20,682 bases of DNA from UHGV virus genome UHGV-0140731; one strand, 5' to 3'. Shown here in pieces: positions 9,320 to 19,600 of the stretch. This stretch comes from a virus. The notes beneath the pieces are model-generated. The model searched no databases, was not told the origin of the DNA, and saw only the letters and a program-made list of their open reading frames with translations. The number at the start of each line of letters is the position of its first letter. Position 1 is the stretch's first letter. The translations under genes and the position numbers were made by a program.

Positions 9320-10201
9320 TCAGCGTCCTGAATCGGTATACCCCCATACAAAACCAGGTTGGACACTAAGGTCTGATAGCTTTTCAATCCCCACCTGTGG
9401 AATGAAGTCGGTAGCCCGAAAGGGCACCCACAGACGGGTATACGCACCCTCTGTGGACTCCTTTTTATCCTGATTTGGGCATTTATGCGGCGGGAGACGA
9501 AGACGCATTTCACCTTTATCGATGTAGCACGGTAAACCATGTTCGAGCTTTTCATGAGCCAGTCGGATGTGTGCCGCCAGCTTCATAAATTCAGTATCAA
9601 TGGCCATCCGTTTAATCGTTTCATAACGACGCTCAGCCTGATCTTCACGAGTACCGCTAACATCGTTATAAAGCTCACACTGATAAGCGAATTCCCAAAA
9701 ACGCAAATCAACGATCGCTTCTTTGAATTCCGCGTCATCTTCAGGTGGCAATGCTGCACGGCGCATCTCCAGCATTTCCATTGCCCAACCATCAAGCGGC
9801 ACGATACGCCATTGATAAGGTACTCCCTCTACAGACACCTCAATATCGTCAATGAAAGGTTCCACTTCCAGGACCTGGATATCTTCAGCCAGAGCATTCA
9901 TATCGCAATCGTAATAATGCTCTTTACCGCAATGTTTACAGGTGTAGGTGAATGTCTCGACCGGTGTTTCACGGGAGCCGGTAAATATCCACCATAACGC
10001 GGTAATCCGGTCCTGCGCCGTCCATGTCAGGGGATCATGTTTCACGGGTTCAGCCAGCAAGGCTTTTAAATACGCCGTTGTCTGTTGTTCTTGTTCCTCC
10101 GGTGTTATCGAGTTGAAACGCATCGCATCAGCAATATTTGGCTGACGGAACTGGATCAATTCAGTTGGCCGCGATGGTAGCGGGAAAAGGGGTAAAAGCA
10201 T
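9320..10201 (-). CDS. Phage structural-module protein, unknown function (contains CxxC...C cluster)
   Basis: 293-codon ORF; ATG 10199-10201 with AAGGAG 5-6 nt upstream; CKHCGKEHYYDC motif. No family assigned. Confidence 0.5.
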   Translation of the reverse strand: MLLPLFPLPSRPTELIQFRQPNIADAMRFNSITPEEQEQQTTAYLKALLAEPVKHDPLTWTAQDRITALWWIFTGSRETPVETFTYTCKHCGKEHYYDCDMNALAEDIQVLEVEPFIDDIEVSVEGVPYQWRIVPLDGWAMEMLEMRRAALPPEDDAEFKEAIVDLRFWEFAYQCELYNDVSGTREDQAERRYETIKRMAIDTEFMKLAAHIRLAHEKLEHGLPCYIDKGEMRLRLPPHKCPNQDKKESTEGAYTRLWVPFRATDFIPQVGIEKLSDLSVQPGFVWGYTDSGR

Positions 10202-10215
10202 CCTTGCTCCTTAAT

Positions 10216-10827
10216 TCAAAGAGAAAAACTAAAGCCCAGAAGGGAAGCCAAAGAACTTGAGGATTGGTTAAACGTGCTGTGCAATGCGAAGGTCATTGGG
10301 AATGACTTAAATTCCGTAACCTGATCCCGCGCATAGGTGACATCGCCGGTAGTGACAGGGAATACAGTCATCTCATTTTCCAGTTTGGTTAAGCCGGAAG
10401 ACAGCAACCGATAAATACGCACATTGAGCAAATATTTAGACGGTATATTCCCGGTACCGTCTGGATTAATCACCCGACTTTTTGCCGTCTTAAACCAGTC
10501 CAAAACGAGGCCATCAACGGTATCCCTGACCATCATTGTTATCTGCCCAGGCGAACGCTCCGTTGGTTGAAGGATATTCCCTCCGCCGATTTTAATCGTT
10601 TCATATTCGATGCTGTAATCGTGGTAGGTAATGTCTTTGGCAAAGAAGTCTGCCCCCTCCAGTCCATCAACTTCGACAGAGAACTGCCATCCTTGCGCGA
10701 ACAACATTTTGTTCATGATGATTGACGTCAGCTTACCAATTTCCCGCTCACCAACGCCGGAGCCAAATAATGTCGTCGTTAATGCCGAAGATACATAAGA
10801 CTTTACTGAAGCAACATTAAGCCCCAT
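10216..10827 (-). CDS. Phage structural-module protein, unknown function
   Basis: 203-codon ORF; ATG 10825-10827 preceded by GGGAG; tightly packed with neighbours. Confidence 0.5.
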   Translation of the reverse strand: MGLNVASVKSYVSSALTTTLFGSGVGEREIGKLTSIIMNKMLFAQGWQFSVEVDGLEGADFFAKDITYHDYSIEYETIKIGGGNILQPTERSPGQITMMVRDTVDGLVLDWFKTAKSRVINPDGTGNIPSKYLLNVRIYRLLSSGLTKLENEMTVFPVTTGDVTYARDQVTEFKSFPMTFALHSTFNQSSSSLASLLGFSFSL

Positions 10828-10837
10828 ATCAGCTCCC

Positions 10838-11428
<591 letters not shown>

Positions 11429-11557: not shown

Positions 11558-12535
11558 TCAAGCCTTAAGAGGCTTTGTGTATGTTCGTGTAATCCAACCA
11601 GTAATAAACTCATCCCCTGATTTAACCTGCACGTAAAGCCATTGACGATCTTTCTTATCTAAAATAGCAACAATTGTGTTTTTGCCAATGCATTCAATCA
11701 CTTCACTATTTAAAGAAGGGCTGACATGTAATCTTACGTTATCACCAGTTATAAACCTAAAACCATTGAGATCTTCCCACTTAATTTCTGTGTTTTCTTT
11801 AATTAATTTTTGTTTTGATATTGGTGCATCCTCATATAGGGATACAGAATATGATTCTGTCTTGTGTATTTGCGATAAGATTTGTTCTTTTGCATAATCA
11901 GCAATGGCACCAAGCAACACTTCTGTTAAAAACCACATAATAATAAACTGAAGCGGGTGAGGGAGCGCCTTAAATGAGTCAATAAACGTCGAACTGGATT
12001 TATTTAATCCTTTGTCTTGAACATCACTTTCGTTGTGAGATGTTTCAATAGCACCTTCAACATAAGCCTGTGCAATTGATGAAAGACCTTGCTCCATTGT
12101 TCTATTAAATAGAGATGTCTTTTTTTCAATATATTGATTTTCTTGTTTTTTTATAATATCTTTTGTTAAATCATCGTAAGTTATATATTCTCGTAAATTT
12201 TTAAGTGTAGCCTCCATACTTTCCAAGCCAGCTTGTTTATTAAAAACTTCTATCTGGCTTTGTAATGACAAAGATTTTTCCGACTGTTTCTGAAAATTTT
12301 CAACATACTTACGGAAAAGATGGTTTATCTCATTCGTTTTTAGTGATGTGTTAAATTTTTTTTGAAGATAATTATCTAATATTTTTTGAGATGTTTTTTC
12401 CAAAACTATATGCAATAGATTTTGTTGCAAAAAATCAAGCGGGGTAGTAAGACCACCCAAACTCACTGATTTTGCTAAATTACTTAACTCGTTATATTTG
12501 GAGCTATTAATACTTGCCATCTTATTCGCCATCAT
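11558..12535 (-). CDS. AT-rich cargo gene: membrane protein with central TM helix and C-terminal SH3b-like domain
   Basis: 325-codon ORF in strongly AT-rich DNA; hydrophobic segment LQFIIMWFLTEVLLGAIADYA; C-terminal ~65 aa resemble bacterial SH3 domains (GDNVRLHVSPSLNSEVIECIGKNTIVAILDKKDRQWLYVQVKSGDEFITGWI). Exact start ambiguous (MMANKMAS). Confidence 0.55.
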   Translation of the reverse strand: MMANKMASINSSKYNELSNLAKSVSLGGLTTPLDFLQQNLLHIVLEKTSQKILDNYLQKKFNTSLKTNEINHLFRKYVENFQKQSEKSLSLQSQIEVFNKQAGLESMEATLKNLREYITYDDLTKDIIKKQENQYIEKKTSLFNRTMEQGLSSIAQAYVEGAIETSHNESDVQDKGLNKSSSTFIDSFKALPHPLQFIIMWFLTEVLLGAIADYAKEQILSQIHKTESYSVSLYEDAPISKQKLIKENTEIKWEDLNGFRFITGDNVRLHVSPSLNSEVIECIGKNTIVAILDKKDRQWLYVQVKSGDEFITGWITRTYTKPLKA

Positions 12536-13028
12536 ATTGTTTTAAACACCCGTCTTTTTTAGCTTCCTTGTAAATACTTGAAATACCATTAAGAGAGAAT
12601 GATGTGATTCGACGCGATCCGATATATACATCCATGTTTTTTTCTTTTGTGGCTGACGCTGACTTCCAAAAAGAATACCATTCCCTACGATTTGGAGCAG
12701 TGTTTTGCGTACCAATATTAAAGCTATCCGGACCAACAATTAAGGTAATTACATCAGCTTTACGAGAAATTGTATCGCGTGTAGAAAAATCAGCATTCTC
12801 TTTCCCTCCGCTTACATACAAATTTCTTCCAGCGATATGATCTTCGGAACCTTCCCTTGCTCCAGCATCACAAGAAAAGTTAATTGTATAGCCATCGTCA
12901 TTGGCTGCAGAAATTTCTCTCCACCCTTGCTCACCTCCTACCGTCCAATCGGTAGAACTTGCCATTGCTGATAATGGCAAGAAAGAGGGCATTAATAAAA
13001 AGCTATACAATGACTTATACAATTTCAT
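12522..13028 (-). CDS. AT-rich cargo gene: secreted/periplasmic protein (signal peptide), unknown function
   Basis: 168-codon ORF; ATG 13026-13028 with AAGGA upstream; N-terminal signal-peptide-like sequence MKLYKSLYSFLLMPSFLPLSAMA. Confidence 0.55.
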   Translation of the reverse strand: MKLYKSLYSFLLMPSFLPLSAMASSTDWTVGGEQGWREISAANDDGYTINFSCDAGAREGSEDHIAGRNLYVSGGKENADFSTRDTISRKADVITLIVGPDSFNIGTQNTAPNRREWYSFWKSASATKEKNMDVYIGSRRITSFSLNGISSIYKEAKKDGCLKQYDGE

Positions 13029-13116
13029 ATTTTTATCCTTTTGGTTTTAGGTATTACAGGCATAGTCCATATTGTTAGATCCACTATGCCCAGAGAATTT
13101 AATATTATTCATTAAA

Positions 13117-13608
13117 TTATGGAGCTACACCCGGCCCCCTAGCTCGTTCTTCAAGCGTACCCTGTACGTTTTGATGGCGCATTCCCGGGGCATTTCTGAT
13201 TGAGTCAATGCCATTTCTTCCAACATCTTCTTTATTGACGGCATTGCTCGCCACCAGCACCCCCCAGCTAGGGATAGCAAAATCAGGAGCGGTTTCGCAT
13301 GCCTTTACCATATAATCGAAAGTGCTTCGATTGATCTCGTTCGCGTCCGGATTTAACAGGCGAGAATATTGATATTTAGCATTTTCGTTGGTTGCGACTT
13401 TATACAGTTCTTGCTGCACCATCGCTTCAGAAAGTTTAAGGCGTTTCATGTCTGAAAGTAACTTCTTGCGCATGGATTCGTCTTGGCTGACAGCAAAGCC
13501 GTAAACGTGCCCAAGGTATTTCGTATAATCGGTACAAATCTCCTTTACACTTGATGCTGCATTAACAGTCCCAGCCATAAATAATAACGGTAGTAATAGT
13601 TTTCTCAT
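13117..13608 (-). CDS. Secreted protein with a Sit-related C-terminal tail (chimeric)
   Basis: Start placed at ATG 13606-13608 (MRKLLLPLLFMAGTVNA, GGTGAGG upstream) rather than the longer track start. The last ~45 aa (SNAVNKEDVGRNGIDSIRNAPGMRHQNVQGTLEERARG) are homologous to a segment of the Sit-like protein (GNAVGVNDLVNKFMNGRGMRREVVQGTLEERARG). Confidence 0.55.
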   Translation of the reverse strand: MRKLLLPLLFMAGTVNAASSVKEICTDYTKYLGHVYGFAVSQDESMRKKLLSDMKRLKLSEAMVQQELYKVATNENAKYQYSRLLNPDANEINRSTFDYMVKACETAPDFAIPSWGVLVASNAVNKEDVGRNGIDSIRNAPGMRHQNVQGTLEERARGPGVAP

Positions 13609-13704
13609 TATAACCTCACCTGCCTTATAACCCATTTAGGGTACATATTTTCGCCTTTAAAAAAAAGAGGTTATTAGATCCATTTGTGTATTTATCATAC
13701 AATT

Positions 13705-13759: not shown

Positions 13760-13788
13760 TTGACCTTTTAATCGTTCAGGCTTATAGT
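13760..13788 (+). promoter_or_regulatory. sigma70 promoter candidate (TTGACC-17-TATAGT) for the c4/icd/ant-like operon
   Basis: -35 TTGACC at 13760-13765, 17-nt spacer, -10 TATAGT at 13783-13788, read directly from the sequence. Confidence 0.55.
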
Positions 13789-13919
13789 TCCGCCGTCGTA
13801 GCAAATTCTGCGACCGGGTTTAGCAGCCTGAATACTTACGCGGACAACCGCAGATTTCCGATATTGCGGTATTTTTGTGTCCGTAAACCACGTTACGCCC
13901 GAATTATGGTGGGGCGTGA

Positions 13920-13997
13920 TGGGGAGGCTTCGGCCTGCTGGTTTCGTAAGTGCCAGTCTGCTAACCCCGTCACGTCCTGCCACCTGTTTAGCAGCGG
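13920..13997 (+). ncRNA. Candidate c4-like antisense RNA (immI-type translational repressor)
   Basis: Contains a UUCG-tetraloop hairpin (aggc-ttcg-gcct, 13926-13937) and a 7-bp stem (ctgctaa 13958-13964 / ttagcag 13988-13994). Two short elements, cggcct (13931-13936) and tcgtaagt (13944-13951), are complementary to adjacent target sequence 14016-14028 (acttacgaggccg) covering the icd Shine-Dalgarno. Boundaries are approximate. Confidence 0.4.
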
Positions 13998-17902: not shown

Positions 17903-18099
17903 TACAATCGTTGCGGGTGCTTGAGGCTATCTGCTTCAGGCATTACCCGAAAAGCAGATAGAAGAAAGCCCCAGATAACATTACGCGTCCTGCAAGACGC
18001 TTAACATTAATCTGAGGCCAATTTCATGCTAGACACATGTAGGTTAGCCTCTTACGTGCCGAAAGGCACGGAGAAGCAGGCTATTGTTAACACCAAGCT

Positions 18100-19600
18100 G
18101 TAATGTCCCCTTTGAACCATTCTAAAATGTCCCCAGACAATTCTCTGGGGGATTTTTCATGATCAAAGAGACTGTTACGATGAGTCATAAGGAACTCCAC
18201 CGACTTCAGATTATTCAGGAACAAGCTGCGGCACGCATTGGCATTTCTATTCGGCAGGTTAAACGTCTGGTGCAACGGTATAGAAATGAAGGGCCTTCTG
18301 GTCTGGTTTCCCACCGACGTGGAAAGCGTCCTAATAATTCCTTTTCTACTGAATTCAGAGCAACAGTAATTTCACTCCTCAAAGGCCGTTACGCTGATTT
18401 TGGACCTACGTTTGCGTGCGAAAAATTGCGCGAGATACACGGTTTATCTTTATCCGTTGAAACTCTCAGAAAGTGGATGATAGAAGAGGGGTTATGGCGT
18501 GAACGCCGTCGTAAAATTGCCCGTATATATCAACGCCGCATGCGACGACCATCTTACGGTGAACTGATCCAGATTGATGGCTCACCTCATGACTGGTTTG
18601 AAAATCGAGGCCCCAGATGTACACTGATCGTTTTCATTGATGATGCCACCAGTGCGTTGATGGCGTTGCGTTTTGTGCCTGCTGAAACAACCCGGGCTTA
18701 CATGGAAACCCTCCGGGGTTACCTTAATGATCATGGCGTACCGCTCGCTCTCTACTCTGATAGACACAGTATATTCAGGGTAAATAACCCAGAGCGGGAA
18801 GGTGAGCTGACCCAGTTCACTCGTGCGATAAAGACACTGGGCATCGAGCCAATCCATGCCAACAGCCCGCAGGCAAAAGGGCGGGTAGAGCGCGCCAATC
18901 AGACACTACAGGACAGGCTGGTCAAAGAAATGCGGCTTCAGAATATCAGTGATATTGAAACAGCAAATGCATGGTTGCCGACCTTTATTGAAGCCTATAA
19001 CAACCGGTTCGCTACGTCGCCTCGTACTACTGATAATGCTCATCTTGATGTGCACCATTCTGAAGAGGAACTGGGTTATATCTTCAGCCTACAGGCGAAG
19101 CGCGTTCTGTCTAAAAATCTCACTTTCCAGTACAAAAGCAGTGCGTTTCAGGTACGCAGTGAGGGCCGGGGATATCGACTTAGGCATTCGGTTGTTACTG
19201 TATGCGAGAACTTTGACGGTGAAATTAACGTTCTGTATGACGGGAAAGCGCTGGGCTGGGAAAAGTATGTTGATGGCCCGGAGCCTATACCACCGGATGA
19301 TGAAAAGAGTGTCCATGAACGAGTGGATAATGCCCGTATTGATTTACGCTCAAAATACTATGTTAAACCTAAAGCTGACCATCCCTGGCTTACGCGCCGA
19401 ACGCAAAGTCATCAGCAAGTTAAGCCCCCGAAGTTACCTAAAAAGAAGCCTGATCCCGATAAAAAAGATTGAAACCAAGATCGATTCGGTTGAGTGCATA
19501 TCCATTCATAGGGTAGATTCTTAAGTCGCGTTTCTGGTGTTCATTTTCGGGTGGTTTGTTACTTGTTTTACCGGGGATATGCCAGAAACGCGCTGAGTCA
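18100..19600 (+). mobile_element. Insertion sequence carrying a DDE transposase (ends not defined)
   Basis: Single transposase ORF flanked by non-coding DNA; no clean terminal inverted repeats could be defined by eye, so boundaries are approximate. Confidence 0.3.
18159..19472 (+). CDS. DDE transposase (rve/integrase-core type; IS481- or ISNCY-like)
   Basis: 437-codon ORF with N-terminal HTH (IGISIRQVKRLVQRY) and catalytic-core motifs (LIQIDGS..., LYSDRHSIF, SPQAKGRVERANQTLQDRL); GGGGGA upstream of the ATG. Confidence 0.8.
   Translation: MIKETVTMSHKELHRLQIIQEQAAARIGISIRQVKRLVQRYRNEGPSGLVSHRRGKRPNNSFSTEFRATVISLLKGRYADFGPTFACEKLREIHGLSLSVETLRKWMIEEGLWRERRRKIARIYQRRMRRPSYGELIQIDGSPHDWFENRGPRCTLIVFIDDATSALMALRFVPAETTRAYMETLRGYLNDHGVPLALYSDRHSIFRVNNPEREGELTQFTRAIKTLGIEPIHANSPQAKGRVERANQTLQDRLVKEMRLQNISDIETANAWLPTFIEAYNNRFATSPRTTDNAHLDVHHSEEELGYIFSLQAKRVLSKNLTFQYKSSAFQVRSEGRGYRLRHSVVTVCENFDGEINVLYDGKALGWEKYVDGPEPIPPDDEKSVHERVDNARIDLRSKYYVKPKADHPWLTRRTQSHQQVKPPKLPKKKPDPDKKD

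Follow-up and report, generated by a model that had tools for sequence, protein, structure and literature searches.

A conserved Sit-like peptide in the tail of a SimA-family protein of P1-like phage-plasmids, and its possible part in superinfection exclusion

Introduction

In contractile phages the tape measure is the first protein to leave the tail tube, and it acts in the periplasm and at the inner membrane. T4 Imm and Spackle are phage envelope proteins that halt genome delivery after adsorption; Spackle, which is small, helical and periplasmic, is an inhibitor of gp5, the lysozyme of the tail. HK97 gp15, an inner-membrane protein, is said, from work by Cumby and colleagues in 2012, to block DNA entry with a specificity that maps to the tape measure of the incoming phage. 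The exclusion phenotype of P1 reportedly belongs to simC, so that Sim is SimC, as Kliem and Dreiseikelmann in 1989 and Maillou and Dreiseikelmann in 1990 are said to have found. To our knowledge the only sim function that has been tested in P1 is the one that maps to simC, which is unrelated to the gene described here and lacks the peptide with which we are concerned.

T4 Imm has been reported to exclude superinfecting phages by binding the T4 tape measure (bioRxiv 10.64898/2026.03.06.709160), and the lipoprotein Ltp of the Streptococcus prophage TP-J34 blocks DNA entry with a specificity that again maps to the incoming tape measure (PMC3952083). The tape measure of P1 is Sit, a virion protein (PMC9024508) that is essential (PMC10695390) and that the cryo-EM maps of P1 do not resolve (PMC12810830). 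The sim region of P1-like phage-plasmids is non-essential (PMC10695390) and is one of eight known hypervariable regions and a recombination hot spot (PMC9603915).

Here we analyse a stretch of 20,682 nucleotides from the virus genome UHGV-0140731 (the window, by which we mean this whole stretch), which encodes a SimA-type protein whose tail resembles part of Sit. The described exclusion proteins compare with it as follows. Imm and Spackle have no sequence or fold similarity to the SimA-type protein and carry no copy of a target segment, and HK97 gp15 and Ltp likewise contain no target-derived peptide, so that the candidate mimicry element distinguishes the protein from all of them; moreover, gp15 is an inner-membrane protein and Ltp a lipoprotein, whereas the SimA-type protein is predicted to be soluble in the periplasm. 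With Sit and the related SLT tape measures (phrog_2533) it has a box of 39 alignment columns in common and nothing else, and Sit is packaged whereas the SimA-type protein is, judging from its signal peptide, exported.

Results

A full-length SimA-family gene in the sim locus

The DNA of the window comes from a P1-like phage-plasmid (Punavirus); about 1 kb around the SimA-type gene matches P1 and its relatives, and the protein is 100% identical to a product of the E. coli plasmid NZ_CP049847.1. Tail-fibre genes, sit, pmgB/tub/pmgC (9320-11404) and three small genes (11558-13608) follow one another on the minus strand, and beyond the SimA-type gene the plus strand carries the c4 a1/b1 target sites, the C4 antisense RNA and then icd, ant, kilA and repL (Table 1). 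The SimA-type gene is thereby divergent from c4/icd/ant and upstream of pmgC-tub-pmgB-sit, the order also found in 12 other lineages, and since it has pmgC on one side and the c4 RNA on the other it lies in the sim (superimmunity) locus of P1, at the very position that this locus occupies between pmgC and c4/icd. As the a1/b1 sites and the C4 RNA diverge from it at so short a distance, its promoter region borders directly on what is annotated in P1 as the C1-controlled c4 operator region. A consensus promoter scan upstream of the gene yielded no site; the basis for expecting its expression in a lysogen is the predicted PsimA of P1, which lies in the homologous 5' region. Farther along the plus strand, a sok antitoxin RNA (Rfam RF01794, 115.9 bits; 17915-18085) implies a hok/sok-type locus just past repL, and it is followed by a 437-residue transposase-like open reading frame with HTH and rve_3 domains (18159-19472, plus strand), part of an insertion-sequence-like element.

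Table 1. Features of the SimA-type gene, the surrounding sim locus and sit, with their positions in the window
Feature	Position	Strand	Evidence or remark
SimA-family gene, full length, short allele	13117-13608	-	163 aa including the stop codon; phrog_3933
Predicted signal peptide, MRKLLLPLLFMAGTVNA, cleaved before A	13558-13608	-	Read from the sequence; N-terminus identical to P1 SimA
Helical core, aa 18-125, with two invariant cysteines (C25 and C104)	13234-13557	-	No recognisable fold relative
Sit-like box, aa 134-160, in the flexible tail: IDSIRNAPGMRHQNVQGTLEERARGPG	13129-13209	-	BLASTP, phrog_2533, hhalign; AF2 pLDDT 42-62
Allele-specific 3' end (VAP and stop)	13117-13128	-	Beyond the mosaic breakpoint at 13128/13129
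Counterpart of P1 simA	13469-13608 vs L001 2985-3143		P1 homology ends at 13469
Sim cassette that is variable with respect to P1	11458-13468	.	Local blastn map, P1 annotation, translations
Second cassette gene, secreted YfjT-like protein, 168 aa	12522-13028	-	Signal peptide ending in LSAMA, then SS; phrog_3429, E=1e-67
Third cassette gene, 325 aa, hydrophobic segment and SH3_3	11558-12535	-	phrog_7086; Pfam SH3_3
a1/b1 target sites and C4 antisense RNA of the immI region	13782-13834 and 13902-13987	+	170-300 nt upstream of the SimA-type gene
sit, tape-measure protein with SLT transglycosylase domain, 1124 aa	5864-9238	-	
SLT domain of Sit, aa 742-847	6698-7015	-	Pfam PF01464, E=1.8e-14; confident in AF2
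Conservation island of Sit, aa 891-960	6359-6568	-	Sliding conservation 0.68-0.82, flanks 0.06-0.4
Full box in Sit, aa 921-960: LVNKFMNGRGMRREVVQGTLEERARGKG	6359-6478	-	In all 14 Sit sequences
Second, half-box copy in Sit, aa 992-1010: GIDGLFDKLRNSPGMRKNN	6209-6265	-	Within the hypervariable stretch

We prefer the ATG at 13608 as the start codon because it is preceded at 6-7 nt by GGTGAGG, a site of a kind that the alternative ATG at 13635 lacks. The product matches the phrog_3933 profile over residues 1-162 (E=1.7e-114), and a database search returned 29 homologous clusters at E<=1e-33, several of which bear the name 'simA domain protein'. In alignments it has the traits of the family, namely the signal peptide, the two invariant cysteines and, past the core, a half-box of the form NxxGMRxQ. 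The signal peptide has an n-region, a hydrophobic core and a VNA cleavage site and is without a lipobox cysteine, from which the protein is predicted to be Sec-exported and soluble in the periplasm. An AF2 model built with the family alignment is confident for the helical core (residues 20-125, pLDDT above 90) and much less so for the tail (42-62).

The core has proved difficult to relate to anything else. The protein has no match among the NCBIfam models, nor do it and its two neighbours have any among the PADLOC defence profiles, and a search of PDB sequences with the SimA-family profile gave chance matches only. Its score against the PTP-like phytase family (PF14566; 26.8 bits, E=6.2e-6, profile positions 46-132 only) lies below the Pfam cut-off of 27 and the catalytic HCxxGxxR loop is absent from the sequence, so we reject this assignment; there is no fold match to phosphatases either. 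PTPlike_phytase is also recorded as a precomputed domain on many members of the family. Similarly, the idea that the core is a decayed SLT domain finds neither an hhalign alignment beyond the box nor a fold match to SLT structures.

P1 simA as a 5' relic

The first ~45 residues of the product are those of P1 SimA, which ends after 52 residues and comprises a signal peptide and ~28 further residues, with neither core nor box. Where the window has its variable cassette, P1 carries simB and simC together with the first ~45 codons of the SimA-type gene, annotated as 'simA'; SimB and SimC are unrelated to the SimA-type protein and do not contain the box, although they, like SimA and the YfjT-like protein, start with signal peptides (read from the sequence). 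Relatives that carry the full-length gene are common. It is present on 126 of the 267 matching PLSDB plasmids, and among the PLSDB matches listed without it only a 48-residue remnant of the P1 type was seen; the IMG/VR loci comprise ~24 long alleles, 14 short ones like that of the window and ~25 remnants. Phage Ro157c2YLVW has a long allele, the same protein extended by 50 residues to a total of 215. The shared 5' end, the full-length relatives and these counts indicate that P1 simA is a 5' relic of the full-length gene. A scan of genome contigs returned four loci only and contributed nothing further. Short contigs of metagenome-assembled genomes labelled Paenibacillus or Bacillota (L019, L020) carry fragments 100% identical to the E. 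coli phage-plasmid gene, and these occurrences are almost certainly binning contamination.

The second cassette gene has its counterpart in Ro157, where gp34, the next gene after the SimA-type gene, is likewise a member of phrog_3429; PF27224 (YfjT) is flagged for genes at this position in other loci. The phrog_3429 gene travels with the SimA-type gene and forms a tandem pair in some lineages (L012). The product of the third gene has a central hydrophobic segment and, at its C-terminus, an SH3_3 match that is just below the Pfam cut-off (E=8e-6); the gene is partly common to plasmid NZ_LR890336.1 according to the local blastn map. It is found only in some sim cassettes, of which that plasmid provides an example, and its product also weakly matches an amidase PHROG.

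The tail carries a Sit-like box

An earlier note on this DNA, made from the sequence alone, had claimed that the C-terminal ~45 residues of the SimA-type product are homologous to the region of Sit just past the SLT domain, that the two share the motif GMR..VQGTLEERARG and that the remainder of the protein has no such relationship. All of this is borne out, and the coordinates were right to ~10 nt. BLASTP of the product of 13117-13635 (minus strand) against Sit aligns tail residues 131-171 (13123-13245) with Sit residues 921-957 (6368-6478), 21 of the 41 positions being identical, at a significant E=1e-7, and reports a second, weaker match to Sit residues 997-1010 (E=0.006). The core of the similarity, GMRxxxVQGTLEERARG, lies at 13135-13185 and 6380-6430 and is identical at 14 of 17 residues and 37 of 51 nucleotides. 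The Sit-family profile phrog_2533 matches the tail at its positions 928-963 of 1130 (E=2.8e-5 in a search against 38,880 PHROGs), and hhalign aligns the SimA family with the Sit C-terminal alignment at a probability of 95.7% (E=8.9e-9) over 39 columns only. Outside the box neither BLASTP nor hhalign gives a significant alignment between the two proteins, and the SimA-type protein has none of the tape-measure helices, the SLT domain or the conserved C-terminus that mark the Sit family.

As both segments are short and disorder is predicted for them, one might ask whether two flexible, Gly/Arg-rich stretches have come to resemble one another by chance or through composition. This we find barely credible in the face of the pairwise, profile-profile and PHROG-wide E values above and of the eleven residues, VQGTLEERARG, that are identical in a row. 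Furthermore, a search of 1.84e9 representative proteins with a profile of the box, 45 positions long, recovered ten proteins at E<=1e-3, and all but one are Sit-type or SimA-type proteins or fragments thereof; the exception, a eukaryotic Ig-repeat protein at E=8e-4, we judge to be a chance match. None of the PDB sequences contains the box, the profile giving chance matches only. The box is thus not a common independent domain, and on this exhaustive search it appears to be private to the Sit and SimA proteins.

The Sit box is a conservation island

In Sit, the box lies within an island whose mean pairwise identity (0.68-0.82) exceeds that of the SLT domain. Nowhere in the alignment of the C-terminal third are invariant columns packed more densely than in a run within this island; a hypervariable stretch (0.06-0.3) comes next. 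Every Sit examined has the pattern [FL]-x-[NS]-[GSA]-[RP]-G-M-R-x-x-x-V-[QE]-G-T-L-x-x-R-A-[RY]-G-x-G. The second, half-box copy is confined to the E. coli lineage, where that of P1 Sit reads ...INARGMRSNN; the lineages of Salmonella, Klebsiella and Cronobacter lack it. In its first half, the SimA box of the window is nearer to this second copy than to the first. An AF2 model of Sit residues 700-1124 is confident for the SLT domain and assigns the box region a pLDDT of 33-59, from which we conclude no more than that the box is probably flexible; with low values in both copies, both look like linear motifs on flexible segments.

The box across lineages

We paired the SimA-type gene with the sit of its own genome in 13 lineages (Escherichia, Salmonella, Klebsiella, Cronobacter and one metagenome), the Sit proteins of which are 49-88% identical to that of the window. 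The SimA-type proteins of all 13 have the half-box N-[AS]-[PR]-G-M-R-[HQT]-[QP] ~15 residues past the core, two members being degenerate at one residue (G or M). In 7 of the 13, representing both major clades, the box is full, with the addition of x-V-[QE]-G-[TSA]-L-x-x-R-A-x-G-x-G, and in the remaining lineages, about half of the family, an unrelated Cys-containing module replaces its second half, so that nothing beyond the half-box can be essential. Of the members found, P0035 is the most distant; it carries the full box and is 73% identical to the window protein in the box as against 39% in the core. Genomes without the Sit-like tail do exist, in the form of the P1-type remnant that has no box, but the family members examined all keep the half-box, if degenerate in the two cases mentioned.

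The region past the half-box is modular and comes in at least three versions: there may be nothing, as in the short allele, a helical tail with LPYEW at its end, or a module that contains cysteine (K-x-C ... S-L-C-x-D-G-Y). Database entries P0003, P0004, P0007, P0008, P0016 and P0020 look frameshifted.

Covariation of the SimA box with the Sit box of the same genome, over the 13 paired lineages, did not reach significance by permutation (half-box, p=0.28; full box, p=0.07), and the half-box states of Sim and Sit reassort among loci of the E. coli lineage, which leaves no signal of co-evolution. The Sim half-box and the second half-box of Sit seem to be paired (NxP vs NAR), but 3 of the 34 loci from the E. 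coli lineage break the pattern, which in essence derives from a single lineage, and we make no claim of it.

An old module next to a mosaic breakpoint

The earlier note had gone on to read the Sit-like segment as probably a recombination scar left where a cargo island was acquired, or else a partial duplication of sit. The nucleotide comparison bears on the age of the similarity. In the window, the SimA box is identical to the resident sit at 58 of 90 nucleotides, and 10 of the 16 degenerate codons that specify identical residues differ between the two; the figure is 60-85% in those other lineages that offer 10 or more comparable codons, and hence there has been no recent DNA exchange between sit and the SimA-type gene. 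Comparisons among members of the SimA family show the box to be saturated at its synonymous sites (pS ~0.8-1.1), with a pN of 0.14-0.32 that is similar to that of the folded core; between the window and Ro157 the box has five synonymous differences and one non-synonymous difference. These codon differences and the pS and pN values exclude a recent duplication or gene conversion and show selection on the peptide. A partial duplication of sit can accordingly be retained only as an ancient event: an old partial copy, kept by selection, would be the simplest origin of the tail box.

A breakpoint is nonetheless present. Similarity to the long allele of Ro157c2YLVW continues in register through CGA GCT AGG GGG CCG GGT (RARGPG) and ends at 13128/13129, beyond which long alleles have 50-60 more residues, and in these the similarity to Sit runs about ten residues further (G-x-G-T...G-N; hhalign). 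The mosaic breakpoint at the 3' end of the gene is real, but the box sits on the conserved side of it, where nucleotide identity with the Ro157 long allele is 94.7%. Besides the homology and an ancient copying from sit, the part of the earlier reading that stands is the recombination junction itself; the Sit-like segment is not its scar.

That a true breakpoint directly follows the box, in a region that is a recombination hot spot (PMC9603915), is what one would expect if the box were a scar or a recent partial sit duplication marking the insertion of a cargo island. We nevertheless regard this as very improbable: apart from its place on the conserved side of the breakpoint, its divergence from the resident sit and the purifying selection that acts on it, the box occurs at the same position in the SimA proteins of all lineages, including divergent phage-plasmid lineages. 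Nor are the downstream genes foreign cargo: 12522-13028 is the usual neighbour, phrog_3429 as in Ro157, and the stretch as a whole corresponds to the sim region already described as hypervariable (PMC9603915). The box is, very probably, a conserved homologous module and not a scar.

Discussion

The question raised by these observations is what a peptide of the tape measure is doing on a protein of the superimmunity locus. It is possible to imagine a course of events in which Sit is ejected first into the periplasm upon contraction of a P1-like tail and its box (25-40 residues, at ~921-960) serves as a linear binding motif that some step of genome delivery after adsorption requires. The SimA-type protein resident in a lysogen would display the Sit-box peptide in the periplasm, where it might either occupy the partner of the box, as a decoy, or co-associate with the incoming Sit, and by either route injection by superinfecting P1-like phages would be blocked. 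The short allele may have lost the module beyond the box by recombination at 13128/13129, which would have made the box its C-terminus. A periplasmic superimmunity-locus protein that bears a Sit peptide is, we infer, most simply a competitor. The statement as a whole, that a conserved Sit-box module sits on a periplasmic SimA-type protein and brings about exclusion by mimicry, we would place not far short of an even chance; that the SimA-type protein excludes phages through Sit mimicry is a plausible suggestion of which we are somewhat doubtful, and it is only tentatively that we propose the box as a competitive decoy that excludes related phages at genome delivery, in what would be the first exclusion by tape-measure mimicry. 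A tight arms-race version of the idea is disfavoured by the absence of own-genome covariation, by the reassortment of Sim and Sit states and by the fact that half of the family has only the half-box.

The main alternative is that the box is an envelope-targeting or regulatory peptide which both proteins share and which SimA uses for something other than phage exclusion. Its ligand might be peptidoglycan or a host protein of the periplasm or inner membrane, or it might act as a modulator of the neighbouring SLT transglycosylase, and the SimA-type protein might, for example, guard the wall of the lysogen from Sit-type muralytic attack (lysis from without), much as T4 Spackle inhibits the gp5 lysozyme, or act in lysogenic conversion. 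We consider this unlikely. Searches by fold and by sequence gave no significant match between the SimA-type protein and any family of inhibitors or peptidoglycan-binding proteins, the box is not packed against the SLT domain in the AF2 monomer model (which is of low confidence there), and the motif is missing from all other SLT proteins among the 1.84e9 representatives.

Competition might also take a more direct form than the decoy. If the box were a self-association element of a Sit oligomer, the SimA tail could bind the incoming Sit itself and prevent the refolding or channel formation needed for DNA passage. The evidence for the decoy serves this possibility equally well, the second half-box in E. 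coli-lineage Sit fits with repeated, mutually interacting elements, and T4 Imm binds its tape measure directly (bioRxiv 10.64898/2026.03.06.709160). Yet contact between boxes receives support neither from the AF2 model of Sit nor from covariation in the 13 paired lineages, and direct contact should leave a lineage-specific matching of which none was detected, so that we hold such a poisoning of Sit to be quite unlikely.

Phage envelope proteins that block genome delivery are a known class, and within it the mimicry element of the SimA-type protein would be new; our search of the literature found no paper on the similarity between SimA and Sit or on a tape-measure mimic in an exclusion protein. 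For P1 itself, the results call for a re-reading of simA as the truncated 5' end of a larger gene that is carried by about half of natural P1-like phage-plasmids. The peptide shared by Sit and SimA makes it testable how the sim locus stops an infection at a point after adsorption and before DNA entry, and it gives a handle on the role of the C-terminal third of Sit after ejection. If the decoy idea is true, target mimicry would be added to the means of excluding relatives that are known from prophages, and it would be through the Sit box that a host or phage partner is engaged while P1 DNA enters.
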